Source of the DNA: Alphaproteobacteria bacterium | Lineage (GTDB): Bacteria; Pseudomonadota; Alphaproteobacteria; Bin95 | Reading direction: 5' to 3' | NCBI GenBank assembly: GCA_963665325.3 | Contig: CAXXWS020000004.1 | Coordinates: 224,001-288,000 of the forward strand | DNA length: 64,000 nt | Shown here: positions 21,098 through 41,782 of the stretch, piece by piece | Position numbering within the stretch: the stretch's first letter is position 1 | Layout: every line of letters starts with the position of its first letter | Notes under the pieces: generated by a model | Database searches by the model: none | What the model was told of the DNA's origin: nothing | The model's input: only the letters and a program-made list of their open reading frames with translations | Program-made: the position numbers and the translations under genes

Positions 21098-21160
21098 GGC
21101 ATTCCCCCAGCGGCGGCACCGTTGACAAAATACAGGCGATGACGGGAAAGGACGAAGGTC

Positions 21161-22256: not shown

Positions 22257-22259
22257 CCC

Positions 22260-25200: not shown

Positions 25201-26588
25201 ATTTCGCGCAGCATGGTCGTCTTGCCCGTGCCCGCATGGCCCTGCACGCCCACCACACGGTCGCACGACAGCAGGATCGTGCGCACCGCCTCGCGCTGGC
25301 CTTCCGTCAGCAGGCCGGCCGCCAGTTCCGTCTCCACCGCCGCCCCGTCCGCCGCCGCCTGCCCGGCGCCGGCGCCGTCGCGCATCCAGCCGATATTGCC
25401 GCGCTCGGCCCTGAGCGCCCGGTCGGTGACGAAGGCCCGGTCCGCCCCGCGCAGTACCGCTTCAACCAGATGACCGTCACGGCGCAATGCTTCGATCGCC
25501 GCTTCCGCCTCCTCGACCGAATACCGCCCGGGCGCCTGGCCGAGCGCATGCGCCGCAATGTCGCCCGCCGCGAATACCGACGACCGCTCCTCCAGATGTT
25601 CCACCGCCCGCCAGACCGCTTCAAGCACCGGCAGAACGGGGCGCGCGTCTGCCTGCCGCCTGTCCCGCCGCTCGCGCCTTGCCCGTGCTGCCGCCTCGCG
25701 GGGCAGCAGGCCGGCCTCGCGGGCACGCCGCCGCCATATCCGCCGCAGCAGATGCATGGCCGGCTCCGCCTTGCGCCGCCGCGTGAAGAGCGCCGCCTGC
25801 TGCGCCCTGGCCGCGCTGTAGGGGCCGCCCCGTTTCTTTATGTCCTCAAGGATGTCGCGGCGCCGGGTCGAGAACGCGTCGCGCATTTCCCGGTCATAGC
25901 CCGCAAGCTCGAAGCCCGGCACCGGCCCGATCATCGTCGGCACGGTCTCGTAGCCCATCTCCTGAAGCCGCCGCGCCAGCTCGTTGCGGTAATGCGCCCC
26001 GATCAGCTTCCTGTTGCGCCGGATCGCCGTCGCCTCGATGCTCCGCCACTCCCCGGCGCCGTTCCGGGTCATGTTCGCCACCACGCAATGCGTGTGCAGC
26101 TGCGGGTCCAGGTTGCGGCTCGCCAGATGCCGGAAGGTCGCCGCCACCATGCCGTGCGCCTTCACGCGCGGGCGGCGCCGCGTTGCGGGGTCCCAGCCCC
26201 GCGTCTTCAACAGCTCCGCCTCCACCCGGTCCAGCGCCGCCCGCACCGCCTTGTCATGCGCGCGGATCACTCGCTTGTCGCCGTGCAGCAGAGCCGCCAG
26301 CGACACCGACTTCGGTGCCGACAGCGTGACGTCCAATCCCGGACGGTGCTGGTGCCCGCCGTCGCGCATGCGGCCGAGGCGCAGCCCCGTCCCCGGCACA
26401 TGGCCCTCAAGGATCGCATTGAAGCGCTTCGGCGACACGTGCCGCCCCAGGCCCAGCGCCTGCGCCGCCTCCCCGTGCCAGAAGCTCGCCTTGCGGTGCT
26501 CCGGGTCCCCCTTCGCGTAGTAGCCGTCCTGCTCGAAATAGTGGACCGTCGAACTCGCCGAGCCGATATTCGTCACCGTCGCGACCAT
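22260..26588 (-). CDS. MobF-family relaxase-helicase (TrwC/TraI-like) with extended C-terminus
   Basis: HYFEQDGYY, DVTLSAPKSVS, HLASRNLDPQLHTH, GHAGTGKTT, VVDEASM, LVGDSGQL, HAAQGTT and YVGISRAR motifs. Confidence 0.93.
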   Translation of the reverse strand: MVATVTNIGSASSTVHYFEQDGYYAKGDPEHRKASFWHGEAAQALGLGRHVSPKRFNAILEGHVPGTGLRLGRMRDGGHQHRPGLDVTLSAPKSVSLAALLHGDKRVIRAHDKAVRAALDRVEAELLKTRGWDPATRRRPRVKAHGMVAATFRHLASRNLDPQLHTHCVVANMTRNGAGEWRSIEATAIRRNRKLIGAHYRNELARRLQEMGYETVPTMIGPVPGFELAGYDREMRDAFSTRRRDILEDIKKRGGPYSAARAQQAALFTRRRKAEPAMHLLRRIWRRRAREAGLLPREAAARARRERRDRRQADARPVLPVLEAVWRAVEHLEERSSVFAAGDIAAHALGQAPGRYSVEEAEAAIEALRRDGHLVEAVLRGADRAFVTDRALRAERGNIGWMRDGAGAGQAAADGAAVETELAAGLLTEGQREAVRTILLSCDRVVGVQGHAGTGKTTMLREMARLAGERKVVGLAPSKAAVRALEREAGIPARTLQWFLARHRDIGDRMASPERLAEARLAFGGAVLVVDEASMVSAAQMRQTMRIAERIGIARLALVGDSGQLRSVEAGQPFRQLQQAGMATARMDEILRQRDPDLHEAVVAIREGEPAEAMGRLGDNVHEAEADELGEAAARLWLSLHPEARARTAILAPTHALREDINEAVREGLRDEGVLHGRVLEIERLVGLGLTRAQKADIASYRPGDVLVFHNDIYQFRVKTDDACTVTETDRGQVSLHHPDGRPRRIDPSDPIRYRYEVYETRPIRLQAGDRIRWTRNDGKRGLVNGDEAEILSIGYRFVKLETDDGLTLSLRRDDPQLRHVDHAWSATLHAAQGTTRDNVIAVLDSGHDAPVDRAAFYVGISRARDNAVVLTDNREDLVEALEEHAGLPMTALEAVGEEIAPPVPLPIPEHEAVWPELSAWRALEEEARQQGTIPYYMEGCAEAVERLAELGRAPGISAGIAAEAKRAAETHEAAAAARAALDRLHEKLEAEIAGRTGLTDRTGDRGRDYELWCAGELKLRAEADGIAGEEERYRPHLNALPAIRDGIAEACEKLKGILEADKAVLPILDDWRALDGRAREAGTHWFHEDGREDVLSRIETVPELPHMDAALRTGLAAIVAEGRGIAAAEDRFRPLAKRLRDCVEKRQRLIERTGELRATYSLDSRLETWREEAGRLLDEARDLLDADGSFGHAGALPDLRDGIAADRRLLTDAVWLDRRLAACLLERREVMRRETGTPLFYREGNEEVVLRMRLMAMEPELNGDTRALLGRLVAEHDREAAARSEVEGLVRDLGSALEAREQLSDVTAPRGRSLTEDGASYRIWSEVARQLCRTAERILGEERYAVHLDRIEGAREAIGRDGKRLSQALETDTAYGKIAPKLARYDLGGPELRRVAGEARRLLTRPELDPGARKRLERQVGIDDAARRRDRSRDIGGGMTP

Positions 26589-26661
26589 GAAGGCAGTCTA
26601 GCTGCACGGGCCGCGAAATAGCACATCGCCGCATGCGAATTCGCAGCCAGGCGACAACCGG

Positions 26662-26691
26662 TTGCCCTTCCAGCGCCGGCAGGACCATAAT
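26662..26691 (+). promoter_or_regulatory. Putative sigma70 promoter outside the left inverted repeat
   Basis: TTGCCC-N18-CATAAT. Confidence 0.45.
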
Positions 26692-26717
26692 CACTCCTGC
26701 AATCGTCCATGAGGCTT

Positions 26718-26740
26718 CCCGCTCTGTCGGGTCGCCCGCT
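26718..26740 (+). repeat. 23-bp inverted repeat, left copy
   Basis: CCCGCTCTGTCGGGTCGCCCGCT is the exact reverse complement of 36546-36568. Confidence 0.92.
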
Positions 26741-26807
26741 TCATGATTCCGATCCTTCAAACGAGTCCCGTCCGGCTACAACGCTACTCTCGACAAGTGA
26801 GTCCACG

Positions 26808-28400
26808 ATGAACGCGCTCAAGAGGCTCCCCTTTGCCGCCGTCGCTCTTGCCGTAGCCGCGTGCGGAGGTGGGGGAAGCGGATCGGGGCCGCAAACGGCG
26901 GTTCGCGTCGAGCCGCCGCCTCCCTCGAAACCCGTTGTCCAGCCTCAGGGGAATTCCAATACGCGGTTTGGCACGACCAAGCGAGACTACTATCCGCTGA
27001 ACGCCAGGTTTCAGAAGATCAGGAAACCGACTCGACAGGAATACAATCGAGAATTCTACGAAGCTGCATTGGTAGAATATGAGGCCGGAACATGCTGTTG
27101 GGAAATGGCAGAAGGAAGCTCCGATATTGCCTCGCGCGAAGAAGTCCTGTCTATGCTGCGAGAAAACATCTATTCCTTTGAGAACCTTGTTAGAAAGGAC
27201 GCCGATCCCGATACTCCTCCCGGAATAGTGGCTTCCATCAAGGGACACAGTTCGCCTCCGGAAGTTCGCATTGTTTCCGGGTCCGAGCCAAAGGCTGCAC
27301 TCACAAGGGCCGTTGACAACATCAATGCTTGGCTCCCGTACAGATTGCATATCACCGTCGGAAACGACATATCCGCGAGCGCCGATCCCGGCACAAATGT
27401 TATCAGAGCAAACTTGAACCAAGTCCGTGATGATGAATTTGACGGGGATGGTGGATTTTACGAAATAAACATCACTGAAAAACACAATGAAAATGTGAGT
27501 CTTATACAGCATGAGCTATTGCACGCTTTGGGGATGAGTGGAGGCAGGTCTTGCTACGAAACATTCGGGGCAGATTGCGACACCGCGAGCCTTTCTGGCC
27601 CACAGAATGCCTATAGTCATGTGCCGATCTCTGAGTTCCCCGAAAGCACTATGTCCTATGTATCTCCCTATGATGATGAACACGGTTTGTCGCAGATAGA
27701 TGGCGAGACGATACAGACTATCTATACCAGACTTCACACCAAGCGAGAAACTTATTTGGAACGACCGGGAGCATTTTATATTGAAGACGAGACCATATCT
27801 GCGGAAGATTTGGGGCCGTGGGACGACTCGGTAATCCGCTACAGTGGAAGTTTTGACCGGCCCATCGACACAGATTTTCACGCTCGCGGCCACTCTGTCC
27901 ATGGAGGTGGCAGGGTATTCTGGCATAGTTCCGGCAGCGACCCGCTTTCAATGAGCGCGGCGTTCGGCGTTGATTGGCGCAATGGTATTGCAAGGCCGTG
28001 GACAGTCGGGCAACCGCCGGAGGCAACCTTTGCTGATTCGGGTCTTGTAGGGAATGCGGCCTGGCGCGGTGAGCTTGTGGGCTTCACGCCGATCAGGGAA
28101 GCCGTTTATGGCAACAGCGCGATCTCGGTGAACTTGGCGACAATGGCGGGCAGTGCGGCATTCACCGCACTTGAGCACTGGAATGCCGGTGCAGCGCCAG
28201 GCGAGCCGGGAACGGGAATGCAGTGGAACGATGGCGACTTGCATTACTCCATCGGCTTGGGCGGGAATTACCTTCGCAGCAATGGAGGCGACGAGGGTTA
28301 TGTCTCCGGGCGCTTCGTTGGTGGCAGGCACGAAGGGGCGGTTGGAATTCTGGAGCGCCCTGATTTGACGGCCGCGTTCGGTGCCTCCCGGAAAGAGTAG
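26808..28400 (+). CDS. Surface lipoprotein with zinc-metalloprotease (HExxH) domain and TbpB-like C-terminal barrel
   Basis: VAAC lipobox plus GGGGSGSG linker; HELLHALG...SH..ESTMSY; C-terminus A.WRG..GRFVG..AVG..AAFGASR. Confidence 0.72.
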   Translation: MNALKRLPFAAVALAVAACGGGGSGSGPQTAVRVEPPPPSKPVVQPQGNSNTRFGTTKRDYYPLNARFQKIRKPTRQEYNREFYEAALVEYEAGTCCWEMAEGSSDIASREEVLSMLRENIYSFENLVRKDADPDTPPGIVASIKGHSSPPEVRIVSGSEPKAALTRAVDNINAWLPYRLHITVGNDISASADPGTNVIRANLNQVRDDEFDGDGGFYEINITEKHNENVSLIQHELLHALGMSGGRSCYETFGADCDTASLSGPQNAYSHVPISEFPESTMSYVSPYDDEHGLSQIDGETIQTIYTRLHTKRETYLERPGAFYIEDETISAEDLGPWDDSVIRYSGSFDRPIDTDFHARGHSVHGGGRVFWHSSGSDPLSMSAAFGVDWRNGIARPWTVGQPPEATFADSGLVGNAAWRGELVGFTPIREAVYGNSAISVNLATMAGSAAFTALEHWNAGAAPGEPGTGMQWNDGDLHYSIGLGGNYLRSNGGDEGYVSGRFVGGRHEGAVGILERPDLTAAFGASRKE

Positions 28401-28521
28401 GGTCATGGCCAGAGACAGCGGTCGAGGCACGTCCGCCTGCGGTCTCTGCCCCGTCACTGCCTCATCTGGACCGTCGCCGAACCTCTCCTTGATCGTCGCG
28501 CCGCAACTGCCACAGCGCTAG

Positions 28522-30591
28522 CCCAAGTTTAACGTTTTGGTGGCCGATTTTGTCGAGGTTGGCCGGCGCGGTGTCATCAAGCCATTGATATTGCTGGATT
28601 GAGGTTTCCGGGGGCGCAATGTAGTGCCATAATATTTTCACTTGGGGATTTCGAGACCTTGCGCCCGCTCCTATGCTGTGCGCCATGTTCATTCGCCGCA
28701 CCAGGACCGGAACCGGCGAGCGCGGCGAGGTCTATTATTCCCATCGCCTTGTTCGCTCGGAGCGCGACGGCGGGAAGATCCGCCAGCGCACCCTGCTCAA
28801 CCTGGGGAGCGACTTCCCTGTCGAGCGGCGGCACTGGGCGGTGCTGTGCAGCCGGATCCAGCAGCAGCTCGACCGCCAGGCCGAGCTGGTTTCGCTGTCC
28901 TGTCCGGAGGAGGTCGAGCGGCACGCCCAGCGCATCGCCGCGCAATTGCTCAACAGCGCGCCGTCCGGCGGGACCGGGCGCCCTGACCTGCAGACGGTGG
29001 ATGTCGGCTCCCTGGAGCTGATCCGCCCGCGTTCGGTCGGCGTCGAGCATGTCGGGCTGTGGGCCATGGAGCGGCTCGGCCTGGAGGCTTTGCTGGAGCG
29101 CCTGGGCTTCAACGGCACGCAGCGCGCGCTCGCCATGGCCACCGTGATCGCGCGCATGGCGGCGCCGGGCTCGGAGCGCGCCTCCTGGCGCTGGCTGTGC
29201 GAGCGTTCGGCGCTCGGCGAGTTGCTGGGGGTGGACTTCGAGCGCATGAGCATGATGCGCCTGTACCGCGCCTCCGACGCCCTGATGGCGCAGCGCGCGG
29301 CGATCGAGGCGCATCTGTTCGATCGGGCGACGGATCTGTTCGGCCTGCGCCACACGGTGACGCTGTACGACCTGACCAACACCTTCTTCGAGGGCGCGGC
29401 GGCGGCCCAGGCCAAGGCCGAACGCGGCCATTCCAAGGAGAAGCGCTCGGATTGCCCGCTCTTGACCCTGGGGCTGGTGCTCGACGGCTCGGGCTTCGTG
29501 CGCCGCTCCGAGGTGTTCTCGGGCGCGGTCAACGAAGACAGGACCCTGGCGTCGATGCTCGGCGCCCTGGGCGCGCCGGCGGACGCGCTGGTGGTGATGG
29601 ATGCGGGGATCGCCACCGAGGCCAACATCGCCTGGCTGCGCGCGAACGGCTACCGCTATCTCGCGGTCAGCCGGGAACGCACCCGCCGCTTCGATCCCGA
29701 GCTGGCGCTGGCCATCGAGACCCGGTCGCGCCAGACGGTCCATGTCCACAAGGCGGTCGACGCCGAAGCTGGAGAGGCGCGGCTCTACTGCTACTCCGAG
29801 GCGCGGGCGAAGAAGGAACAGGGCATCGCAAACCGCTTCGCCGCGCGCTTCGAGGGCGAGATGCAGAAGCTCCACGACGGCCTCAAGCGGCCGCGCACCC
29901 GCAAGCGGCTCGACCATGTCTGGCAGCGGATCGGCCGGATCAGGGAGAAGAGCCGCGGCGCCGCGGCCCACTACGACATCGACGTCATCGCCGACGAAAG
30001 CGGCGAGAAGGCCCGGGCCGTCACATGGGAGCGCCGCCCGCTCGCCGGCACCATGGCCACCCATCCCGGCGTTTACTGCCTGCGCACCAACGTCGAGGAC
30101 TGGGACGAGGAGGCGCTGTGGCGGACCTATACCTCGCTCACCGATGTGGAGGCGGTGTTCCGATCGCTCAAGTCGGAACTCGGCCTGCGCCCCATCTTCC
30201 ACCAGACCCAGAGGCGCTCCGACGGCCACCTGTTCATCACCGTGATCGCCTACCAGATGGTGCAGACCATCCGCCGGCGCCTCGCCGAGCACGGCGAACA
30301 CGCCAGCTGGGCCAGCCTGCGAGCCATCCTCGAAGGCCAGCAGCGGGTCACCGCGACCTTCAGGCGCAAGGACGGACGCACCTTGCATGTCCGCAAGGCC
30401 ACACGGGCCGAGCCCGAACAGCAAGAAATCTATCGCGCGCTCGGCATCGACCCCGCCCCTGGAGGCATCAGGAAAATGATCGTCTGATCCCGAACCGGGC
30501 GAAATAACCGAAATGTAGTGCCAGACGCGAAATTATTGCTCCGTAAGGCATTGATAATCAATGATCTTCAAAATGCTCTGTTAAACTTGGG
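28522..30591 (+). mobile_element. IS1634-family insertion sequence
   Basis: 12-bp TIR CCCAAGTTTAAC / GTTAAACTTGGG, flanked by CTAG on both sides (28518-28521, 30592-30595). Confidence 0.88.
28685..30487 (+). CDS. IS1634-family DDE transposase
   Basis: RQRTLLNLG, LYDLTNTFFEG, GHSKEKRSD, VMDAG and VEAVFRSLKSELGLRPIFH motifs. Confidence 0.92.
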   Translation: MFIRRTRTGTGERGEVYYSHRLVRSERDGGKIRQRTLLNLGSDFPVERRHWAVLCSRIQQQLDRQAELVSLSCPEEVERHAQRIAAQLLNSAPSGGTGRPDLQTVDVGSLELIRPRSVGVEHVGLWAMERLGLEALLERLGFNGTQRALAMATVIARMAAPGSERASWRWLCERSALGELLGVDFERMSMMRLYRASDALMAQRAAIEAHLFDRATDLFGLRHTVTLYDLTNTFFEGAAAAQAKAERGHSKEKRSDCPLLTLGLVLDGSGFVRRSEVFSGAVNEDRTLASMLGALGAPADALVVMDAGIATEANIAWLRANGYRYLAVSRERTRRFDPELALAIETRSRQTVHVHKAVDAEAGEARLYCYSEARAKKEQGIANRFAARFEGEMQKLHDGLKRPRTRKRLDHVWQRIGRIREKSRGAAAHYDIDVIADESGEKARAVTWERRPLAGTMATHPGVYCLRTNVEDWDEEALWRTYTSLTDVEAVFRSLKSELGLRPIFHQTQRRSDGHLFITVIAYQMVQTIRRRLAEHGEHASWASLRAILEGQQRVTATFRRKDGRTLHVRKATRAEPEQQEIYRALGIDPAPGGIRKMIV

Positions 30592-31123
30592 CTAGGCATG
30601 TGGCCGCTCGGTTCGACACTGCAAGTAGCGAAAAGCTCGGTGCAGCCGGCCGCGTCTTCGAAGTACTGCAGTCGATGATGTTCCGGGCCGCCGGCTCGCA
30701 ATATAGTCCCCCGTGCCGTCAGGCGGATTCGGTCGGCCGGGCGAACGGTGGCGCTTTCCCAGCGGGAGAGCGCGGTGTCGACCTGCGGGCCAAGGGGGCC
30801 GTCGACGCGACCAGAGCAAGACATAGCGGCGTGGCGGACGAACGACAGGGTGCTCTGCTTGTCGAGGCGGACACCGAGGACGTGGGCTCCGCCTGACAGA
30901 TCCCTTGGAAACGCCCGTGTTTCGGAACTACCAGAAAAGCCCGGTGGCGGAAGAACGCAGACACCGCCGTGTCGGCCGCCGCATGCTCCTTCACCCCCTC
31001 AACACCTTGCCGTGACGACTGTCGGCCGACAGGACGCCCCCACCGCCCTCCGCCGCCGGCTTGGCTGGCCAGAGATGGGTACGCATACCAATCTTCAGCG
31101 CGTGCCGAGTGAAGGAAGGCGAG

Positions 31124-31384
31124 ATGTCTCGACCCAACGCAGTTCTAACTATGGCGAGAGCCGCAGCCGAACGAAATGCCATTGATTTGCTCGCATATTC
31201 TAACACCATATTTCCTGATGGGGATAAAGATCTAGTTTCCGTCAAACTTATCGAAATCGGCGTGGCATTTACAGTCAATGCCCGTCGGTGCTTTGAAGTC
31301 GACGGCCAGCCTGTGGAAATAACGGCGAAGCGTTGGAATTACACTATGAATGAGATGCAAAATACGGCTACGTTATCGAGATGA
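31124..31384 (+). CDS. Small hypothetical protein (low GC, possibly truncated)
   Basis: ATG with GAAGGAAGG RBS, AT-rich codons, ends 5 bp before the Slam stop codon. Confidence 0.4.
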   Translation: MSRPNAVLTMARAAAERNAIDLLAYSNTIFPDGDKDLVSVKLIEIGVAFTVNARRCFEVDGQPVEITAKRWNYTMNEMQNTATLSR

Positions 31385-31389
31385 AATCG

Positions 31390-32787
31390 TCAGAACATCC
31401 GGGAAATTCCGAAGACGGCGCCGTGATTGCTGTAGGCATTGATCGGGATATTGGAGCGGTTTCGTTCGTAGAAATAGCCGACATAAGGAGCGAAACCCTG
31501 AAATTGTAGCGTACGGTAAAGCAGGTTTACCGACACACGCATCTGCCGGTCGAAGCGCGTTTTCCGAAACAGCGCGTCCTTGTCTCCATAGCGCCGCCAA
31601 CGGGTGGAAATCCGGGGCGAAATGGAAAAACCCCCATGGAAGGCATGAGAGAATGCAAGCGCCAGTCCGCCCATGCGGTTTCCGAAGCGGTCCTCCTTGG
31701 CTCCGACATGCTCCAGGTCGAGTTCGACACGCAACGTCGTTCCAGAGTTCAGCGCATAGTTGAGGCCGGGACGCAGGTTGACGACCCATCCGTCCAGGCC
31801 GGACTGTTCCGGGTGAGCGCGACGTTCGGCACCGAGCGCGGCATCGAACCTCAGGACCGGCGAGAGCCTCAGGCGGCCGCGCGTCCAAGGGCCGACGCCG
31901 GTGCTGTGATGGTCCCCGCCAAGCCAACGCTGGGCGATGCGAAGGCCGCCCGAGGTACTGCCCCGGTCGAACAGCCGGGCGGTTCCGACATCGCCCTGTA
32001 CGGAGATATCGTTCCAGTCCGACTGTTCATAAAGCTTTAATGCCGCCGAGGCGGCCAGCACACCGCGCCAGGGGCCGGAAATCACCGGCGAGTATTGCAC
32101 GCCCGTGCTGACAAGCATGCCCGTGCCCGAGGCCTCGCGCGCGTCCTCGCTCAGCCGGAACGGCGCGCCGCCGATGCGTACCTCTTCCCGGTCCGTGCGC
32201 TTGACCGGATTGCTCTCCGGCAGCGCGGCCAGCGATAGCGAGACCGACCATCGCTTGCGCGCATCGATCCGATCAAGCCAAGCCTCGACGGCGTCCTCGA
32301 CCGAGGACGGCAGTTCATCGGCGAGCGAGGCTTCGAAATGGAACCGGGCTTTCTCATTGCGCCCGAGCATGCCAAAGACGCGGGCCAGTTCCAGCCTGAC
32401 CCGCGTCAGGCCGGGCCGAATGGCCAGGATCGCCTCGAACCGTTCCACCGCCTCTGACAACATGCCGACCCGCGACTCCGCAATGCCGAGCAGGAACAGC
32501 CGCTCGATCCGCTCCTCCTCGTCGCGGGACGTCCAACGTTCCAGAATATCCCGGGCCTCGCGCCACCGCTCTGCGCTCATCAGCGCCCGCACAACCTGCA
32601 GGACCGGAACATGGAACGGCTTCGGCCTCGACCCGGCCTCCTTTCCAGCGGCAACCGGGACGGCCGTGTCGGGAACGGCAGGACCTCCGATGACCGTCAG
32701 AACAAGCGCCAGAACCGCGACACCAAGCATACGCAAGAGATCAAGCCTCGGGTCAGCAGGGCTACTGCCCTGCTGACCCGTCGTCAT
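31390..32787 (-). CDS. Surface lipoprotein assembly modifier (Slam / DUF560, type XI secretion translocon)
   Basis: Signal-like N-terminus, TPR (RVRLELAR..ARFHFE), amphipathic beta strands, SNIPINAY motif, terminal Phe; next to TbpB-barrel lipoproteins. Confidence 0.82.
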   Translation of the reverse strand: MTTGQQGSSPADPRLDLLRMLGVAVLALVLTVIGGPAVPDTAVPVAAGKEAGSRPKPFHVPVLQVVRALMSAERWREARDILERWTSRDEEERIERLFLLGIAESRVGMLSEAVERFEAILAIRPGLTRVRLELARVFGMLGRNEKARFHFEASLADELPSSVEDAVEAWLDRIDARKRWSVSLSLAALPESNPVKRTDREEVRIGGAPFRLSEDAREASGTGMLVSTGVQYSPVISGPWRGVLAASAALKLYEQSDWNDISVQGDVGTARLFDRGSTSGGLRIAQRWLGGDHHSTGVGPWTRGRLRLSPVLRFDAALGAERRAHPEQSGLDGWVVNLRPGLNYALNSGTTLRVELDLEHVGAKEDRFGNRMGGLALAFSHAFHGGFSISPRISTRWRRYGDKDALFRKTRFDRQMRVSVNLLYRTLQFQGFAPYVGYFYERNRSNIPINAYSNHGAVFGISRMF

Positions 32788-32799
32788 GCAAGAGGGCAA

Positions 32800-34644
32800 C
32801 TATTGCTTGTCGGCACCGAAATATCCCATGAGCAGGCGATCATTTGGCGTGTCGGATACGCTCAACACGCCACCGACCTCATCTGCGTCCGGACCGAAAA
32901 ACGCTCCCTCAACCGACCCGTTCCGGAAACCGGACAAAGCACCGGTTCCCGCGAGGTCGCTGGCCGCCAGCCGATTGCCGGAGATCGTGGCATTGAATGT
33001 AGCTCCGCCCGTTACCGGCGCATACGTGGATGTACCGACCGGGCCAGGTCGGCTCATCAGCTCGCTGACCCTGCCCGAAATGCCTGCTTCGGCGAAATCG
33101 GCCGTTAACGTCATTTCGCCTCTGAACCAGTCCGAGTCGCCCTTAAGCGTCGTATCGTCGCTACGCCACGAGTAGGCGAACATTCGTCCGTCGTAGCTTG
33201 CGGTCCCTGTGGTTGGCATCGACCCTTCCGGTGTCCGGTCTCCATGCACAGCAAGAAAGACTTTGCTCGAAACGTAGTCTTCCAATTCGATAGTGGAGAC
33301 GTCCGCTTCGGCTACGAGGTTTGCATGTACCCAATGTTTTACGTCGAAGTAATCGAATTCCGGACGCCCCCCGAACCCCCTTGCGCCGGACCAGATACTT
33401 GCAGCTTCATCGGTTGCTGGCTCGCTAGTGTATGCGTTCGTCACCTGTGGGTGTGCGTTGAAGTCAGCATTCGTGAACACGATTGTCTGTCCATCCACGG
33501 TCGCGGTCCAACCGGCGGCCGTCCTTTCGATCCGAGCCATGCCGTCATCGGCGATCGCCACTGTCCTTCCTTCTGTAACGAGACGATTCACGCCTGTCAC
33601 GACCGCCTCCGCGCCGACAGCCTTGTTGCCTCCGAATCTCCCGACCAGCTCCTGATCCAAACCGCCTCCGACACGCTTGGCGTTGAGCACGCCCGCCACT
33701 TCCGCCGCATCGGGACCGTAGAACTGTCCCAGCATGTCTCCTTCGAAACCTCGGGCTGTGTTCGCGACGGAAACGGCCCCGTCGGGATCGACTCCTGTCA
33801 ACTCCGCAGTGAACTGCCCCTTGTCGGTCAGGCGGCCGCCGTCGATGTCGATCCTCGATGTCACCGAGATTCCGCTGTAGCTGGACTCTCCGGGTCTTTG
33901 CACCCGAAGATTAAAAATGCGCCCGCCAAGGGACCCGTCTGCAAAATTGGCCGTTAGCGTCAAATAACCGAAGGCGTGCGTTCGTGATCGAGAGTAAGAA
34001 AGACTGCCGACAGTGTTGTCGAACAACTCTCCATACATCTCGGCGTTGTAGGTCGCAGAGCCGCCCGGAAAATCGTTCGGTCCGGTTCCTATTCCGTGAG
34101 TGATGTAAGCCCTGACGCCACCCGGCAACCAGTTGGAAAAACGGTATTGCGTATAGTGGTCGCCGGTCCAGCTCTTGTTGTCCGGATAAGATCGAAGCCA
34201 AAATTGACTCCCATCCGACGTCCGCTTGTAGTACGAATTCGGGCTATTCGTATCTGTCCCGTGGTCGGTGCCGCTGAAGTCGATACGGTGCTCTTGGCCT
34301 TCTATAACGTAGGTTACCTGGAAACCATCGCCGCCGTACCCTCCACTCTCCTCGCGGGAAAGCGACGCGACGTAGCTGTCGTCCATGATCGAGGCACGAT
34401 TCGTACTATTGTCTCGGCGCAGCGCCGACGACAGCGTCGTAACTCCGGTAACCGGGTCGGCGGCGCCGATATGCAGGCCAGCCGCAGCGGCGAGAGGTGT
34501 AACGGCGGGTGGTTTGACGGTTTGGTTGCCATCCATGGAGGTTCGCGGGCCGGAACCCGAGCCGCCTCCGCCACAGCCGACAAGGGCAAGCACGGCAATT
34601 GCCGGCAGAGCCGTCGAGGCCCTCATGAGCGAAGCGATCTTCAT
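32800..34644 (-). CDS. Bilobed TbpB-like (transferrin-binding-like) surface lipoprotein
   Basis: LVGC lipobox plus GGGGSGSG; two lobes each with P.G.ATY.. LTA(N/D)FA.. G.F(Y/F)GPDA.EV.GV.. FG. Confidence 0.8.
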   Translation of the reverse strand: MKIASLMRASTALPAIAVLALVGCGGGGSGSGPRTSMDGNQTVKPPAVTPLAAAAGLHIGAADPVTGVTTLSSALRRDNSTNRASIMDDSYVASLSREESGGYGGDGFQVTYVIEGQEHRIDFSGTDHGTDTNSPNSYYKRTSDGSQFWLRSYPDNKSWTGDHYTQYRFSNWLPGGVRAYITHGIGTGPNDFPGGSATYNAEMYGELFDNTVGSLSYSRSRTHAFGYLTLTANFADGSLGGRIFNLRVQRPGESSYSGISVTSRIDIDGGRLTDKGQFTAELTGVDPDGAVSVANTARGFEGDMLGQFYGPDAAEVAGVLNAKRVGGGLDQELVGRFGGNKAVGAEAVVTGVNRLVTEGRTVAIADDGMARIERTAAGWTATVDGQTIVFTNADFNAHPQVTNAYTSEPATDEAASIWSGARGFGGRPEFDYFDVKHWVHANLVAEADVSTIELEDYVSSKVFLAVHGDRTPEGSMPTTGTASYDGRMFAYSWRSDDTTLKGDSDWFRGEMTLTADFAEAGISGRVSELMSRPGPVGTSTYAPVTGGATFNATISGNRLAASDLAGTGALSGFRNGSVEGAFFGPDADEVGGVLSVSDTPNDRLLMGYFGADKQ

Positions 34645-34767
34645 TGAGCTGTCTCCTGTTTGCGATCGGTGAACCAACGAATGACGCACGGTGCGGGTCT
34701 AGCCGGACACTGCTGAGCGCGTGCAGCGGTCGGGGCCGCAGCGACGTCGACAGGATCGGGCGGACGC

Positions 34768-36306
34768 TCACCGTTTTCCCCCGAATCCTGCGAGCAGTCC
34801 GGCGTCGGGGTCGTTCACGATGCCGGCCATTTCTTCGTGCGCAGGACCGAAGAAGCGGGCGCTAACGCGCTTCTGTTCGTCGGAGAAGGTGTTGCCGACA
34901 ATGGTTCCCTCATATTCCAGGCTGGGCGAACGGAAGGCGCCGGTCGCGCCCCCGCCCCGGCTCACGGTGAGGTTGTCGAACCGTGCCGAGCCAACGAGGG
35001 TCGCGAGTACCACCTGAAGCCTCGCGTTGCCGAATACGGGAGGGAGAGCTGCATCGCCGATATCGACTCCGAGTAGGGACCCGGTCCAGACGGCAGAGCC
35101 GGAAAGCGCCCGGTTGTCGGCCAAGCCGGTCGCGGGCTCGACCCCGAACGCGTGCGCGCCGGCTCCGAGGCGGTCGGCGCCCGGATCGAGAACCCGCTCG
35201 ACGCCAGCGCCCCATGCGGTATAGCGGGCCCAGGCACCATATCCATAGAGTTCCGGCTGCGAGGCTGTCGCTTCGTCAAGGAGGTCGTATCCGATGTCGT
35301 CGAGGATCGCGAAATCGAGCGCTGACGGGTCGGTTACCCTGTTCCTGCTGCAATAGGCCATGACGGAGGTGCACACTGCGGGATGACCGTAATCGACCAT
35401 CGCACCGGAGGTTCCCGGGGCGACCTCCCGACCGTCGGCGTTGACCCATTGATAAGGCACAGACCTGCCGCCATTGGCGCTCACGGCCTTGGGGCCCGTG
35501 AAGGCGTGGTTCTGACGGTCGACGTAGCGGACGATTGCAGGGTGATTGCTGCTGCCGATGCCGAGCACATGGCCGATCTCATGCATCATGACGCGGCGGG
35601 AATCGTGATGCTTCCGGTTAAGGAGAATCTTTCCGGCCCGGGGCTCGACGCCGTCGGTGTCGAAATCGAGGCGCGACGGCCCTGCCGAAGAAAAATTGTC
35701 GGTGCTTGGCCCCTTGTCGAAGACGAATATAACGATGCCGTCCGTAGTGACGACCCGGTGGAGCGTTCTCTCGATATCGCCGATACTGATCTCGGTGCCG
35801 GCGGGAACGGTATGGATTCCCAGATCGTCCGTCAGACGCCGTGACCATGCCTTGCCGGCGCGTTCCATCAGAGCGCGGGATTGTGCATCGACATTGGGAG
35901 CGAAGCGCCAGTCAAACTCGATGTTGATCGTGCCGGCAGGACCGCCCTTCCACTGCCCGTAAACGATGCCATCACGTTCGCCGAGGACCTCTATGCCCTC
36001 GGATTCGACCCTGTCCAGCAGGGTGCGCGTGCCGATGGTCCTGTTCCCGGTAGTGCGGTGGAGCGCGTTGATCGCAGCGGCCTGGCTGGCAGGGTCTGTC
36101 ACCGGCGAAAGACCGAGAGCGGCGCGGAGCCCTCTGGGGTCGTTCCAGCGGTCGCGCGGATCCTCGGCAGTGGGGTTGGCGCGGGCGTAGGTACCGGGTG
36201 AGGCTGGTCCGCCAGTGCTCCCACTACCAGCGCCGGTCCCGCCGCCGCAGGCGGCCAGGCTCAGAACAGTGACCCCGACGGCCGCCAGCTTCATCATTTC
36301 TTGCAT
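34768..36306 (-). CDS. Surface lipoprotein with metzincin/leishmanolysin-like protease domain and TbpB-like C-terminal barrel
   Basis: LAAC lipobox; HEIGHVLGIG..FTGPKAV..GH..SVMAY; C-terminus FFGPAHEEMAG..AGFGGKR. Confidence 0.75.
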   Translation of the reverse strand: MQEMMKLAAVGVTVLSLAACGGGTGAGSGSTGGPASPGTYARANPTAEDPRDRWNDPRGLRAALGLSPVTDPASQAAAINALHRTTGNRTIGTRTLLDRVESEGIEVLGERDGIVYGQWKGGPAGTINIEFDWRFAPNVDAQSRALMERAGKAWSRRLTDDLGIHTVPAGTEISIGDIERTLHRVVTTDGIVIFVFDKGPSTDNFSSAGPSRLDFDTDGVEPRAGKILLNRKHHDSRRVMMHEIGHVLGIGSSNHPAIVRYVDRQNHAFTGPKAVSANGGRSVPYQWVNADGREVAPGTSGAMVDYGHPAVCTSVMAYCSRNRVTDPSALDFAILDDIGYDLLDEATASQPELYGYGAWARYTAWGAGVERVLDPGADRLGAGAHAFGVEPATGLADNRALSGSAVWTGSLLGVDIGDAALPPVFGNARLQVVLATLVGSARFDNLTVSRGGGATGAFRSPSLEYEGTIVGNTFSDEQKRVSARFFGPAHEEMAGIVNDPDAGLLAGFGGKR

Positions 36307-36545
36307 CTGGAGTTTTCCGCTCTTTGGCAGTCCCGCCCACCCCAAAACGGCTGACGAGAAATCCGACTAATGCCAACGCGGCGATAACTCGGGAAGAAAA
36401 CAAGTCATTAGAGCCCCCTCTCAAGCCAATGCGGAACGGTCCCGGGTGGCCGGGCCGTTGCACCTATCCAAAGCCATGGAGAGTCCCGCCTGTTCGCCGG
36501 GCGTCGAGGAGCTACCCCATCGCCGGGATGTCGGCTGTTCTATTC

Positions 36546-36568
36546 AGCGGGCGACCCGACAGAGCGGG
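36546..36568 (-). repeat. 23-bp inverted repeat, right copy
   Basis: AGCGGGCGACCCGACAGAGCGGG. Confidence 0.92.
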
Positions 36569-36591
36569 TGCTTTGGATTAGGTGCAAGGCC

Positions 36592-36620
36592 AGTTTGGAA
36601 GAATCACCGCCGACGCGCAA
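36592..36620 (-). promoter_or_regulatory. Putative sigma70 promoter outside the right inverted repeat
   Basis: Minus strand TTGCGC-N17-CAAACT, 23 nt before the repeat. Confidence 0.35.
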
Positions 36621-36687
36621 GCCGTATGCTCGGCAGTCCTGAACTCGGCTGCCTTGTTCGTCATCAATGTCGACACGGTCTGCGCGC

Positions 36688-37839
36688 TTACGTTTTGCCT
36701 GCCATAGCTCGGGACATTGCCTGTCCGACGCGCTCTGCTGCCGCCTCGATGTCGCGGTCGGCGAGATGGGCGTAGCGCAGTGTCATCTGAACATTGGAGT
36801 GCCCGAGCAGCCGCGAGACCACCGGCACCGGCACGCCGTTCATGACGGCATGGCTGGCCATGGTATGACGCAGGTCATGAAGACGCACGTCCTCGATGCC
36901 GGCTTCGTGGCGGACCCGGTCCCACAGCCCGAGGGTCGAACAGCGCGGGCGCGCCGGATCGCGCGGCGAAGGGAACACGAACGGGCTACCCGTGTGCGGC
37001 TGCCGGTCGAGAATGGCACGGGCCCGGCTGCTGAGCGGCACCGTCCTCGGCCCCGTCTTGGCATCGGCGAGCGCCAGCATTCCGTCACGGACTTCCGACT
37101 GGCGCAGATTGACGATCTCGCCCTTGCGGCATCCGGTGAGCAGCAGCAACCGGATGATGTCGGCCTGCGGACGCCTGTCCTTGCGGGTCTGCGCATCCAG
37201 CGCGGCATGCAGGCGTCCGAGCTCCTCCGTGGACAGGAACCGCGTGAGCTTCGCCCGCCGGTTGAATGCGATGCCCTGTGCGGGATTGCGTTCGATATGG
37301 CCGCAGGCGACGGCGAAGTTCAGGATCTGCCGGAGGCGGCCGAGAACATGATTGGCGTTGCCGGGCGCGGTGCGGCTGAAGCGGTCGAACCAGCGCCCGA
37401 TCCGGGCCTCGCTTATGCGGTCCAGCGGCTTCGACCCGAAAACGGGAAGAAGCTGGCTCGCCAGCGCATACCGGGCGGTCTTCTTCGTCGAAGGCTTGTA
37501 GCGGTCGTAGTGCGCCGCCATCCACGGCCCCGCGACGAACTCCCGGAACAGCGGGACCGGACAACCCGTTCCGATCCTTGTTTCGGGCGCCGGATTCGCA
37601 CGACGGGCGTGGCATTCCTTGCGGACCTCCTCAAGGCTCTTCACGCCGACCGGGCCGAGCGAGATGCGTTTCGTGTGCCCGCCAGCGTCCAGAAGCAACA
37701 CATAGCTGCGCCCGCCGGTGGGCCGCACCCGGACGCCGAGGCCGGCAATGCGGCTGTCCCAGACCGTGTATTCCCGCTCGCGGGGCCGGAGCCGGGCAAT
37801 GGCGGCGTCGGTGAGTTTCATCCTCTCCCTGACCGACAT
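36688..37839 (-). CDS. Tyrosine recombinase/integrase with N-terminal arm-binding domain (copy 2)
   Basis: WDSRIAGLGVRV, TGCRKGEI, DAKTG, HDLRHT, LLGH and RYAHL motifs. Confidence 0.93.
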   Translation of the reverse strand: MSVRERMKLTDAAIARLRPREREYTVWDSRIAGLGVRVRPTGGRSYVLLLDAGGHTKRISLGPVGVKSLEEVRKECHARRANPAPETRIGTGCPVPLFREFVAGPWMAAHYDRYKPSTKKTARYALASQLLPVFGSKPLDRISEARIGRWFDRFSRTAPGNANHVLGRLRQILNFAVACGHIERNPAQGIAFNRRAKLTRFLSTEELGRLHAALDAQTRKDRRPQADIIRLLLLTGCRKGEIVNLRQSEVRDGMLALADAKTGPRTVPLSSRARAILDRQPHTGSPFVFPSPRDPARPRCSTLGLWDRVRHEAGIEDVRLHDLRHTMASHAVMNGVPVPVVSRLLGHSNVQMTLRYAHLADRDIEAAAERVGQAMSRAMAGKT

Positions 37840-37842
37840 GGC

Positions 37843-38967
37843 TTATTCGCGTCCCAGCGCGGCGCTGACCGTCTCGGCGGCGTCCCGCACCATGGCGTCG
37901 GCAAGGTGGATGTATTTCAGCGTGGTCTCCGGCCTGCTGTGCCCGAGTATCCGACCAATCGCCAGCACGGTCTCGCCCTGCCTGAGCGCCAGACTGGCTG
38001 TGGTATGGCGCAGGTCGTGAAGATGCACGTCTTCGAGCTCCGCCTCGGCGCGGACCCGTTTCCAGAAACGCTCCAGCCAGTTGATGCTCCGGGGGCGGTC
38101 GCCCCGCGACGCCGGGAACACCCAGCGCCCCTCCCGCTCAAGGCCGTCGAGAACGGCGCGCGCCGGCCCGGAGAGCCACACTGTCCTCGGCCCCGTCTTG
38201 CCGTCGCGCAGGAACAGGTGGCCGTCCCGGTAGTCGGACCAGCTGAGCGTCAGGATTTCGCTCTTGCGGCACCCGGTGAGCAGCAACAGGCGGATGAGCG
38301 CGGCCTGACCGGGCCATCGGGCCTCATGCGCAGTCAGCCTTTCCGACAGGCGGCGGATTTCGTCGTCGGAGAGGAACCGCTCCCGGCCCTTGCGGCGGTA
38401 GCGCCGGATGCCCCGGCAGGGATTGGAGCCCTCGGGCCGCAGGCCCATGCGCTCCGCCTCCCTCATGATGACGGAGAGGACCGGCATGGACCTGTCCGCC
38501 GCCACCGGCGTGGCGCGCAGGCGGGCGAACCAGTTCCTCACCTCCTGCCGGTCGATGGCGGCAATCGGCCGCCCTGTGAAATGCGGCAGCAGCTGGTTGT
38601 GAAGATAGTAGCGATTGACGGACAGCGTCCCCGGCTTCCAGAGCCGCTCGTAATGCCCGAACGTCGCCTCGGCGACGGCTTCGAAGACAGTCTCGCCGGG
38701 CGCGTGGAGCATGTCCTCGCCGCGCCGGACGGCGGCAAGCATTTCAGTAGCCGAAGCCCGCGCCTCCGTGACGTTCATGCTCTCGGCGTCGCCGACGATC
38801 CTCCAGGTCCGTTCGCCCCGATGCTGGCACTGGATGAAGAACTGCTTGCGACCCGACGGCGACACGCGCACGCCGAAGCCCCTGAGCTTCACGTCACGGA
38901 AGTCTCGGACTGTCTTGCGCGATTTGAGCGCCCCCACGCGGGCGTCGGTGAGGATGGTTGCAGGCAT
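37843..38967 (-). CDS. Tyrosine recombinase/integrase with N-terminal arm-binding domain (copy 1)
   Basis: GFGVRVSPSG, TGCRKSEI, DGKTG, HDLRHT, ILGH and KYIHL motifs. Confidence 0.93.
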   Translation of the reverse strand: MPATILTDARVGALKSRKTVRDFRDVKLRGFGVRVSPSGRKQFFIQCQHRGERTWRIVGDAESMNVTEARASATEMLAAVRRGEDMLHAPGETVFEAVAEATFGHYERLWKPGTLSVNRYYLHNQLLPHFTGRPIAAIDRQEVRNWFARLRATPVAADRSMPVLSVIMREAERMGLRPEGSNPCRGIRRYRRKGRERFLSDDEIRRLSERLTAHEARWPGQAALIRLLLLTGCRKSEILTLSWSDYRDGHLFLRDGKTGPRTVWLSGPARAVLDGLEREGRWVFPASRGDRPRSINWLERFWKRVRAEAELEDVHLHDLRHTTASLALRQGETVLAIGRILGHSRPETTLKYIHLADAMVRDAAETVSAALGRE

Positions 38968-39132
38968 GCCTTTCTCCCGGCTCCGGTGGCAGCCGGGGAA
39001 CAGGCAGTTGTGAACTGCTTATCCGACCGCTATATTTTCGGGAGAAAAAACGACACTAAATCAGATAGTTAGCACCCACCGGTGCGCTGCTCGGTGTCGT
39101 GCCCCATATTGCGCCCAGAAGGAGGACGTGTC

Positions 39133-39690
39133 ATGGACGCCGACACTATTCTCGACTCCGCACTGGCTGTTTCCGCCGAGCACGGCTGGGGGCGGGCGAC
39201 ATTTACCGATATTGCGGCGCACGCGGAATGCAGTCTCGCGGACATCTATCGCCACTTCCCGTCGAAATGTGCGCTGGCGACGGCAGCGGTTGCACGGATC
39301 GATGCGGCCGTGCTGGCCGAGACCGAACCGAATGGAGAGATGTCCTTTCGCGACCGGCTGTTCGATTTGTTGATGCGCCGATATGACGCGCTCAAGCCGC
39401 ATCGCAGAGCCATCGAGGCACTTTGGCGCGAATTGCCCCGCGACCCGTGGGCCGGCGCGCCGCTGGCGCCGGCTCTGGCCCGTTCCATGGCCTGGATGCT
39501 CGAAGCCGCGGGCGCGCCGCCACGCCTGCCGTTCGGCCTGTTGCGGGTGAAGTTGCTCGCCGGGATACACCTTTCCGTCATGCGCGTCTGGCTCAGGGAC
39601 GACAGCGAGGATCTGGGCCAGACCATGGCGAGGCTCGACAAGGCGTTGAAGCGGTGGGGGCCCGTTCTGGAAGGCCGGCGCCGCCAATAA
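39133..39690 (+). CDS. TetR/AcrR family regulator
   Basis: HTH TFTDIAAHAECSLADIYRHFPSK, RDRLFDLLMRR; RBS GGAGG. Confidence 0.85.
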   Translation: MDADTILDSALAVSAEHGWGRATFTDIAAHAECSLADIYRHFPSKCALATAAVARIDAAVLAETEPNGEMSFRDRLFDLLMRRYDALKPHRRAIEALWRELPRDPWAGAPLAPALARSMAWMLEAAGAPPRLPFGLLRVKLLAGIHLSVMRVWLRDDSEDLGQTMARLDKALKRWGPVLEGRRRQ

Positions 39691-39696
39691 AATTGT

Positions 39697-39753
39697 TGCG
39701 GCGCACAAAAAAATACTTGACGCTGCATCGCAGCATAGCGATATTGCACTGCG
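39697..39753 (+). promoter_or_regulatory. Phasin promoter with TGC-N3-GCA (PhaR-type) boxes
   Basis: TGCGGCGCA, CTGCATCGCAG and TGCACTGCG around TTGACG-N17-GATATT. Confidence 0.6.
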
Positions 39754-39817
39754 AGACAACGCCCGCGGCCTTTTGCGGCAGCCGGCTCCCGAGACAGGAA
39801 CGGAGACCAAAAGAGCG

Positions 39818-40273: not shown

Positions 40274-40299
40274 GGCGCGTTGTTCCTCCCCTTCGCGCC

Positions 40300-40334
40300 A
40301 GGCCGCTCCTGCAATGCGGGGGCGGCCTTTTCTT
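40300..40334 (+). terminator. Rho-independent terminator
   Basis: AGGCCGCTCCTGC-AAT-GCGGGGGCGGCCT followed by TTTCTT. Confidence 0.75.
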
Positions 40335-40422
40335 GTCCGGCCCCGGTGCTTCCCCGCTGCGCCGCGCCCGCGCATGCCGGCGACAAGACGCGTCCGTCCC
40401 CATCGGCTATGGTCGCCACGCC

Positions 40423-41760: not shown

Positions 41761-41782
41761 ACTGCGGTCCGGGTTGCGTCCG

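Follow-up and report, generated by a model that had tools for sequence, protein, structure and literature searches.

We examined a 64,000-nt stretch of an alphaproteobacterial assembly (contig CAXXWS020000004.1 of GCA_963665325.3; hereafter the window, whose numbering we use), which corresponds to positions C5:224001-288000 of the source genome (label G000, 5.58 Mb, five contigs C1-C5). The window contains an integrative mobilizable element that holds a gene for Slam, the outer-membrane protein of the type 11 secretion system (T11SS), together with three lipoprotein genes that we call lipo1, lipo2 and lipo3 (Table 1). The genes lipo3, lipo2 and slam form a co-directional string, and lipo1 is convergent with it on the opposite strand. 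We consider it likely that this element (20044-39097) carries a Slam module comprising the ligand-binding-type lipoprotein Lipo2 and the protease-like lipoproteins Lipo1 and Lipo3, all of which would be exported by Slam and the latter two of which would be catalytically active.

Protein families were assigned by Pfam and NCBIfam scans at curated cut-offs, with a bit score of 22 for the Pfam family PF04575 (SlipAM/DUF560) by which Slam genes were counted. Structures of Lipo1 and Lipo3 were modeled with AlphaFold on family alignments and compared with Foldseek and VIA-align. For comparative genomics we used 16 genomes of the same genus (the congeners) within a wider set of 41 related genomes, which consists of the source genome, the congeners, eight genomes of two sister genera and 16 from other families of the class. 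Start codon assignments are tentative: for Lipo1 and Lipo3 the open reading frames (ORFs) begin farther upstream, at 26709 and 36345, and the TTG start of the Slam frame at 32799 adds 33 codons over its 436-aa relatives.

Table 1. Features of the element and its boundaries, in window coordinates
Feature	Coordinates	Strand	Basis
Left copy of 10-bp direct repeat TGCTCGGTGT (element boundary, att core)	20034-20043		Alignment with right junction and three uninterrupted congener sites
Integrative mobilizable element, 19,054 bp (one repeat copy counted)	20044-39097		Contiguous flanks in congeners
Pair of small overlapping ORFs (109 and 106 aa) accompanying the relaxase backbone	21161-21807	+	Sibling copies
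MobF-family relaxase/helicase, 1442 aa	22260-26588	-	Pfam TrwC 253 bits, AAA_30 167 bits
Lipo1, lipoprotein with predicted metzincin-fold HELLH domain and C-terminal TbpB/NHBA-type barrel	26808-28400	+	Models and paralogy
IS1634-family insertion sequence with 15-bp terminal inverted repeats (28519-28533, 30580-30594)	28517-30594	+	NCBIfam transpos_IS1634 296 bits
Small low-G+C ORF (within listed ORF 31061-31384), convergent with Slam	31124-31384	+	ORF listing
Slam/T11SS outer-membrane protein	31390-32799	-	PF04575 and TPR N-domain
Lipo2, two-lobed TbpB-like surface lipoprotein	32800-34644	-	PF01298
Lipo3, lipoprotein with predicted leishmanolysin-like HEIGH metzincin domain and C-terminal TbpB/NHBA-type barrel	34768-36306	-	Models
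Conserved structured motif of ~112 nt upstream of Lipo3, candidate cis-regulatory leader	36466-36578	-	Covariance model R1
Tyrosine integrase A, Arm DNA-binding N-domain	36688-37839	-	Phage_integrase 82.7 bits, Arm-DNA-bind_3 32.4 bits
Tyrosine integrase B, in tandem with A	37843-38967	-	Phage_integrase 71.1 bits, Arm-DNA-bind_3 42.1 bits
Right copy of direct repeat TGCTCGGTGT	39088-39097		Sequence read and aligned

The Slam protein and three lipoproteins

The Slam frame encodes 469 aa, ends in Phe (...GISRMF) and matches PF04575 with 67.2 bits, its residues 184-469 covering profile positions 1-288 of 288. N-terminal tetratricopeptide repeats (TPRs) were found above threshold by TPR_19 (33.2 bits, cut-off 25) and TPR_14 (29.4 bits, cut-off 23.5), and the specific TPR_Slam model scored 20.8 bits, under its cut-off of 35.2. 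The Lipo2 stop codon abuts this frame, placing Slam beside a lipoprotein with TbpB_B_D domains. By its family matches the protein is identified as a Slam/T11SS outer-membrane protein, which, as in the known family, would translocate lipoprotein cargo.

All three lipoproteins have a lipobox (VAAC in Lipo1, LVGC in Lipo2 and LAAC in Lipo3) followed by a Gly-rich linker which, read from the lipobox Cys, is CGGGGSGSGP in Lipo1 and Lipo2 and CGGGTGAGSGS in Lipo3. The N-terminus of Lipo1 reads MNALKRLPFAAVALAVAAC-GGGGSGSGP and its C-terminus FGASRKE; the start region of Lipo2 contains AVLALVGC-GGGGSGSGP and the protein ends in FGADKQ, while that of Lipo3 contains VLSLAAC-GGGTGAGSGS and its last residues are FGGKR. 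The lipobox Cys and the Gly residues next to it are almost invariant in both homologue alignments. Across the whole genome, a lipobox combined with an F[GS][AGS] tail occurs in 27 of 28,440 open frames of at least 100 aa, a rarity that puts these features of the Lipo proteins beyond chance; 12 of the 27 abut a Slam frame, and two more (Lipo1 and Lipo3) lie less than 4 kb from one. Since the Lipo1 and Lipo3 family profiles align with each other over 320 columns (hhalign probability 99.8%, E 1.1e-29), we regard the two proteins as paralogues. Unnamed relatives of both were present among 8000 metagenome candidates that were scored (61 for Lipo1 and 307 for Lipo3).

The C-terminal barrel of Lipo2 is recognized directly by Pfam, with 87.4 bits in two stretches of TbpB_B_D (PF01298, cut-off 26) and 41.6 bits for FHBP_C, and LbpB (7jrd) is matched at E 9.5e-5. 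Against the NCBIfam model of Slam-dependent surface lipoproteins (slam_lipo, NF041636, cut-off 80), Lipo2 reaches 74.9 bits, Lipo3 21.7 bits and Lipo1 gives no match; TbpB_B_D scores 22.8 bits on Lipo3, under its cut-off, and likewise does not match Lipo1. The structural models of the latter two proteins have a predicted local distance difference test score (pLDDT) of 85.0 for Lipo1 and 88.3 for Lipo3, with a predicted template modeling score (pTM) of 0.85 each. When these models were searched with Foldseek, all top rows were TbpB-class lipoproteins (NHBA, TbpB, LbpB, fHbp, HpuA and hemophilins), the best being NHBA (6cuj) at E 8e-8 and a TM score of 0.67-0.75 of the target. VIA-align superposed the Lipo1 barrel on NHBA with Z 15.7 (138 residues aligned, root-mean-square deviation (rmsd) 2.1 Å) and the Lipo3 barrel on NHBA with Z 13.3 and on hemophilin with Z 13.5; hemophilin, fHbp, HphA, LbpB, TbpB, HpuA and PmSLP were among the further barrel matches, the last with Z 10.0 for Lipo1 and 8.5 for Lipo3. 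Profile searches gave a similar picture, in that a profile of 26 C-terminal domains found 29 matches among PDB sequences at E up to 1, of which 28 were TbpB, LbpB, NHBA or TbpB-like (best 3hol, E 1e-6), and hhalign aligned both Lipo1 (E 1.2e-6, 101 columns) and Lipo3 (E 5e-9, 50 columns) with six Pfam-positive barrels of the genus. All three lipoproteins have a C-terminal barrel of TbpB type, by Pfam in Lipo2 and according to the models in Lipo1 and Lipo3.

A preliminary description of this locus had named a TPR and beta-barrel outer-membrane protein ending in Phe, together with three lipoproteins bearing a lipobox, a Gly/Ser linker and FG-type C-termini, and it had staked its reading beforehand on the former being Slam/DUF560 and on the lipoprotein C-termini folding as TbpB-like barrels. 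Genes with these features are present at the positions it gave, and both identifications stand: the first by the PF04575 score, the second by the Pfam score of Lipo2 and by confident models of Lipo1 and Lipo3 whose top matches belong to the class of Slam cargo.

The N-terminal domains of Lipo1 and Lipo3 are modeled with a metzincin fold around a predicted zinc-binding helix (HELLHALG in Lipo1 and HEIGHVLG in Lipo3). The domain of Lipo3 (model residues 125-377) superposes on leishmanolysin (1lml) with Z 15.3 and an rmsd of 3.0 Å over 201 aligned residues, with further matches to MMP-2 (Z 8.9) and snapalysin (Z 8.5), and that of Lipo1 matches serralysin (Z 11.4), astacin (Z 9.6), MMP-2 (Z 9.5) and snapalysin (Z 9.4). 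Leishmanolysin (family M8) has an HExxH helix, a third His far downstream and a Met-turn. In the Lipo families, HExxH keeps its His, Glu and His without exception across the 42 Lipo1-family and 58 Lipo3-family homologues, as does HExxHxxG its Gly (G249) in the Lipo3 family; farther along, one distal His does not vary among Lipo3-family members (H308) and hardly varies among those of the Lipo1 family (H271), with a spacing that we take to resemble that of leishmanolysin, and the Met-turn candidate SVMAY of Lipo3 (M316 almost invariant) aligns with STMSY of Lipo1. At an average column identity of 25-51%, such conservation has the character of an active-site signature. Both proteins thus look like surface zinc proteases, for which we infer catalysis from the modeled fold and these residues. 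As a lead only, one homologue in a protein atlas (P0119) has TbpB_B_D, leishmanolysin and M10 neighbours, all under the bar of that service. Assignment of Lipo1 to a sequence family was tried and abandoned, with nothing from Pfam or NCBIfam and a profile comparison against PDB sequences at chance level (astacin E 0.08).

The element that carries the module

The segments on either side of the element (window 19613-20042 and approximately 39100-43900) are directly contiguous in 15 of the 16 congeners, and the remaining congener has a contig end at this point. When three of the empty sites were aligned with the element base by base, the insert came to lie between two perfect TGCTCGGTGT copies, and the flanking genes are hemY, hemC, tsaD and gpsA on the left and rodA-side genes, PBP2, mreC and mreB on the right. 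The relaxase scores 264 bits against the NCBIfam MobF model NF041492 (cut-off 100), and integrases A and B are 40% identical to each other. The cargo region extends from approximately 26602 to 36700, nearly the interval of the preliminary description, and has a G+C content of 0.59-0.625 compared with 0.666-0.678 for the five contigs.

A sibling element at C1:1508060-1530691 has the same backbone with other cargo. Its counterpart of window 20033-26601 (repeat, small ORFs and MobF relaxase) is 99.4% identical and that of 36725-39102 (the two integrases) 91.6% identical, and unrelated genes fill its interior. Both small ORFs recur in the sibling (G000:C1:1528920-1529581) with 100% identity, and other MobF genes likewise have related copies next to them. 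The sibling cargo includes a glycosyltransferase-25-like gene behind the same ~112-nt motif that precedes lipo3, a 654-aa membrane protein and a 1221-aa protein, and approximately 100 bp at its integrase end recur at eight further places in the genome.

On this evidence 20044-39097 is an integrative mobilizable element, for whose present-day transfer a helper conjugation system would be needed. The placement of the module on a mobilizable element, as first proposed, is borne out by the direct repeats, by the lack of the insert at this site in 15 of 16 congeners, and by the presence of a relaxase but neither a coupling protein nor a mating-pore gene inside the element, and the neighbours named at that time (MobF relaxase, two tyrosine integrases and an IS1634-family transposase at 28673-30487) are real. 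We also considered a tRNA-targeting island, which was ruled out by a tRNA scan that found no tRNA gene in the window; the insertion site is intergenic. Unrelated to the island, synteny breaks at window 19420-19612, where 17600-19419 and 19613-20042 are far apart in all congeners with long contigs, and the break holds a dispersed repeat of approximately 100 bp (19488-19586) with many copies in the genus.

Slam genes and cargo families beyond the window

The source genome has 15 SlipAM (PF04575) matches, corresponding to 12 intact genes and three broken ones. The module is therefore one of 12 intact Slam loci and not a singular acquisition. At least 10 further tandem integrase pairs and approximately 17 further MobF genes of at least 43% identity are present in this genome, and tandem-integrase or MobF genes lie near Slam loci at C1:1199157-1231176, C1:1786989-1790191, C3:694665-709051 and C4:1089484-1101960; MobF genes also accompany Slams on C2 and C5. 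Two stretches, G000:C2:101224-108315 and G000:C4:1094869-1101960, are identical, each with two Slam and two lipoprotein genes, representing either a duplication or assembly redundancy. Elsewhere in the genome (G000:C3:522660-524582, minus strand, locus L069), a 641-aa lipoprotein has a staphylococcal-nuclease (SNase) domain between two TbpB_B_D stretches; judged by this domain composition, it is presumed to be a second kind of enzyme-like Slam cargo.

Slam genes were found in all 16 congeners (1-18 matches each), in none of the eight sister-genus genomes and in 3 of the 16 genomes from other families of the class. The Lipo3-family profile matched 17 of the 41 related genomes, all 17 of which have PF04575, and none of the 21 Slam-less genomes, in a sample where relatives are not independent and three genera carry both a Slam and a Lipo3-family match. 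By record label, the Lipo3 family outside the genus occurs in Binatia, Thermodesulfobacteriota, Nitrospirales, Entotheonella, Porisulfidus, Chloroflexi, Defluviicoccus and others. All five genomes of other phyla with the family that were tested (loci L009, L011, L021, L040 and L035) encode PF04575, with four matches under the label Binatia, one under Thermodesulfobacteriota, two under Nitrospirales, one under Entotheonella and four in a Chloroflexi bin that is fragmented and could be mis-binned. The family profile matched 1403 of 1.84 billion cluster representatives at E<=1e-3 (608 at 1e-10, 167 at 1e-30), and many of these proteins have several domains.

Entotheonella is known from sponges, and a sponge genome note reportedly names Porisulfidus. 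A public sequencing run labeled as a sponge metagenome (X13) covers the insertion sequence and the backbone of the element and hardly the cargo (bins <=1.8), and thus gives no habitat evidence for the module. A host-associated lifestyle, suggested by such record labels of relatives, is a lead only.

Weighing the alternatives

Several observations weigh against a mobilizable T11SS module with protease-like cargo, and we set them out here together with the three alternatives that they bear on. At curated cut-offs Pfam and NCBIfam place Lipo1 and Lipo3 in no family, none of the 42 Lipo1-family members match TbpB_B_D at E up to 0.01, and the Slam-dependence of NHBA, the best structural match of the barrels, is unsettled.

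The first alternative holds that Lipo2 is the only cargo of the Slam in the window, that Lipo1 and Lipo3 use a clade-B Slam elsewhere or none at all (facing the surface or the periplasm), and that the island merely carries them along. We keep it mainly because of how the Slam proteins divide. They form two deep clades, of which clade A holds the Slam of the window and has two-lobed TbpB-like neighbours in four cases (the window, G000:C3:705641, L002 and L005), and clade B holds ten copies from the same genome as well as the two Slams that neighbour protease-type genes (L026 and L017). At L026 a Lipo3-family gene directly follows the Slam gene, and at L017 another lies within the Slam gene string. 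Outside the genus, however, 30 of 32 Lipo3-family loci have no Slam within 7 kb, and given that only two of the 32 adjoin one, gene order does not carry the cargo claim there. Within the genus, congener G013 has a convergent pair of Lipo1-like (32% identity) and Lipo3-like (60%) genes at G013:C3:2795140-2797845, with no Slam, integrase or MobF homologue in the 40 kb around, and in the window itself Lipo1 is encoded on the opposite strand, outside the lipo3-lipo2-slam string. Set against these points, Lipo3 belongs to one gene string directly upstream of Lipo2 and Slam, the barrels of Lipo1 and Lipo3 are of the same class as proven Slam cargo, the family co-occurs strictly with Slam across the 41 genomes, and the five genomes of other phyla with the family also hold PF04575. 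We judge this alternative unlikely, and prefer the reading in which all three lipoproteins are cargo; by analogy with proven cargo, we infer that the protease-like Lipo1 and Lipo3 would depend on Slam for export.

About equally improbable, in our estimate, is that the element is a fixed remnant that no longer moves, so that the Slam module is effectively a chromosomal island. Neither coupling protein nor mating-pore genes were found in the element: PF02534 has no match inside it (20044-22260 lay outside the protein-family scans), with matches elsewhere in the genome, some of them beside other MobF genes, and VirB4 (PF03135) was not found in the genome, so that no helper is evident by that one family. 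An insertion sequence has entered the cargo, and in several sibling elements of this genome the relaxase, integrase or Slam gene is broken. In the element of the window, by comparison, the frames of the two integrases and of the 1442-aa relaxase are open over their full length, the insertion sequence sits between genes, the direct repeats are perfect, the insertion is missing from 15 of 16 congeners, and the near-identity of the relaxase backbone to its second copy implies a very recent duplication or transfer. A mobilizable element accordingly remains our reading of 20044-39097.

The weakest alternative, that the HExxH domains are zinc-less or non-catalytic binding modules that have kept the metzincin fold and that the island displays three binding proteins, is in our view very unlikely given the invariant HExxH, the conserved distal His and Met and the leishmanolysin match of Lipo3, even though the canonical third-ligand position (position 11 of HExxHxxGxxH/D) holds Ser in Lipo3 and Gly in Lipo1, curated peptidase families were not reached (Peptidase_M10 16.5 bits against a cut-off of 24, NCBIfam metallo_LGF 24.8 against 80), Pfam M8 gave no match for Lipo3 at E up to 0.01, even a weak Peptidase_M10 match was seen in only 13 of the 58 Lipo3-family members, and the verified T11SS cargo covered in the text consulted of Grossman 2025 (PMC12282271) are all adhesins, haemophores or metal-binding proteins. 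With Ser or Gly at the third-ligand position and no peptidase model at cut-off, we call these domains metzincin-fold and leishmanolysin-like rather than members of a named peptidase family.

A recurrent upstream motif and other features of the island

The structured motif upstream of lipo3 has 13 matches in the genome (for example at G000:C1:1189775-1189886, C1:1196099-1196211, C4:890296-890408 and C1:1511167-1511278) and 3-11 in each of 14 of the 16 congeners. In its helices 92.9% of cells are paired compared with 87.2% in shuffles, for an alignment that was itself fitted to the model, and 10 pairs differ in both partners, chiefly within a single variable hairpin. Of the genes that follow the 37 copies examined, many are of SLP type, encode other lipoproteins or proteins with a signal peptide, or are glycosyltransferase-25-like, as judged by a first-ORF heuristic that is noisy. 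An Rfam search of 19000-40000 found no match at E up to 0.1. sRNA-Xcc1 was considered for the motif when five copies were compared with Rfam, and its 27 bits against a gathering score of 53 do not amount to membership. From its sequence and recurrence, we propose the motif as a candidate new cis-regulatory leader for surface-related genes. A promoter and terminator scan of 26500-36750 gave four and seven sites, respectively, which is the level of shuffled sequence, and no operon boundaries were drawn from it.

The IS1634-family element sits between the convergent lipo1 and slam genes. It has 11 further full-length copies in the genome at >=99.8% identity (12 in all), which points to recent activity of this insertion sequence, and an interrupted copy is found on contig C2. 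A public contig of another study joins 28516 directly to 30591, so a form free of the insertion sequence exists, and a run of a further study yielded slam-lipo2-lipo3 on a 5237-base contig with four differences. No excision or circle junction was seen among the joints listed in the public-run contigs, which, being assembled, are uninformative on this point. The small ORF at 31124-31384, which lies between the insertion sequence and the 3' end of slam, has no other copy in the genome.

Interpretation and comparison with known systems

We envisage the locus as follows. The backbone of the element consists of the two tandem Arm-domain integrases at one end and the MobF relaxase with its two small accessory ORFs at the other, and the cargo is a T11SS module, the lipo3-lipo2-slam string plus convergent lipo1, with a recently active IS1634-family element landed in the gap between lipo1 and slam. 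The three lipoproteins would pass through Sec export, acquire a lipid at the lipobox Cys and travel on to the outer membrane, where the Slam barrel would recognize their C-terminal eight-stranded TbpB-type barrels and flip them to the cell surface. There the two-lobed, TbpB-like Lipo2 may act as a ligand-binding receptor, and Lipo1 and Lipo3 as lipid-anchored zinc endopeptidases of metzincin fold, whose third zinc ligand would be the distal His just before the Met-turn, as in leishmanolysin.

Slam and Lipo2 are ordinary members of the known T11SS, a system named in Grossman 2021 (PMC8406197), where horizontal acquisition of nilB was also noted. Hooda 2017 (PMC5449769) reports 832 Slams in 638 species across all proteobacterial classes, with 185 of 353 Slams adjoining lipoproteins that share the eight-stranded barrel. 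Grossman 2025 (PMC12282271) found that cluster-1 T11SS co-occur statistically with transposases and tRNA genes, interpreted as mobile islands, and distinguished approximately ten cargo architectures (haemophilin-like 1 and 2, TbpB-, fHbp- and LbpB-like, disordered N-terminus 1 and 2, Pls-like, and Sphingomonas and Psychrobacter surface proteins). In the literature searched, to which supplements and subscription journals did not belong, no description of a protease as Slam cargo or of this element family was found. What is new here is the architecture of a predicted protease joined to a Slam-type barrel, a dual-integrase/MobF carrier of precisely defined extent whose cargo can be exchanged, the degree of amplification within the genus, and the presence of Slam and the cargo family in non-proteobacterial assemblies.

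Surface-anchored protease or nuclease cargo would widen the role of the T11SS beyond the adhesins, haemophores and binders of metal or host proteins verified or predicted for it in the literature consulted (PMC12282271, PMC5449769). Packing three presumed cargo proteins and a single Slam into 10 kb, the island would be a ready test case, and it is a cleanly bounded example of the movement of a T11SS module, previously deduced from co-occurrence statistics. The framing of the T11SS as proteobacterial is also called into question by chromosome-level assemblies labeled Binatia and Nitrospirales that hold both the cargo family and PF04575. A broader proposal, which we put forward tentatively as a possibility that falls short of being probable, is that in this lineage the T11SS displays enzymes (metzincin proteases and the SNase lipoprotein), that the protease-barrel fusion is a widespread family (167 to 1403 cluster representatives, depending on the E-value) occurring in genomes such as those labeled Binatia, Nitrospirales, Thermodesulfobacteriota and Entotheonella, which encode Slam as well, and that in this genus amplified dual-integrase/MobF elements carry Slam and cargo genes, many of the latter under the shared ~112-nt leader.

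Compared with typical integrative mobilizable elements, the element shares integrase, relaxase, short direct repeats, an empty site and the lack of mating-pore genes, and differs in having two tandem P4-like (Arm-domain) integrases instead of one, an intergenic target rather than a tRNA gene, and a family that is greatly amplified within one genome. The text consulted of Grossman 2025 (PMC12282271) describes no individual element with defined ends, in contrast to the bounded element here. Its cargo share with ours a variable N-terminal effector, intervening beta strands and the C-terminal eight-stranded barrel; none of its architectures is enzymatic, and in the main text, as distinct from the supplements, 'protease' and 'peptidase' appear in other contexts only.

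The Neisseria systems, Slam1 (NMB0313) with TbpB, LbpB and fHbp and Slam2 with HpuA, resemble the module in the TPR N-domain and DUF560 barrel of Slam and in neighbouring lipoproteins with a lipobox, a Gly-rich linker and a C-terminal eight-stranded barrel, Lipo2 being two-lobed like TbpB. Unlike those systems, the island has no TonB-dependent receptor partner, two of its three presumed cargo proteins carry an enzyme-like metzincin domain in place of a binding handle, and it resides in an uncultured alphaproteobacterium whose genome has 12 Slam genes intact. The closest solved structure to the Lipo1 and Lipo3 barrels is the C-domain of NHBA (GNA2132; 6cuj, 5o1r and 2lfu), at an rmsd of 2.1-2.2 Å over 136-138 residues, and it is also matched by the C-domain sequence profile (E 0.0017); NHBA differs in its long disordered heparin-binding N-region and the lack of a protease domain, and its identity to the Lipo barrels is 19-26%. 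For the N-domain of Lipo3, the best structural match is leishmanolysin, or GP63 (M8, 1lml), which is a lipid-anchored cell-surface metalloprotease, as is proposed for Lipo3. GP63 is eukaryotic and bears a glycosylphosphatidylinositol anchor, whereas Lipo3 would be a bacterial N-acyl lipoprotein, and the two share 17% identity. Lipo1 is closer to serralysin, astacin and the matrix metalloproteinases (MMPs), leishmanolysin not being among its best 50 entries listed.

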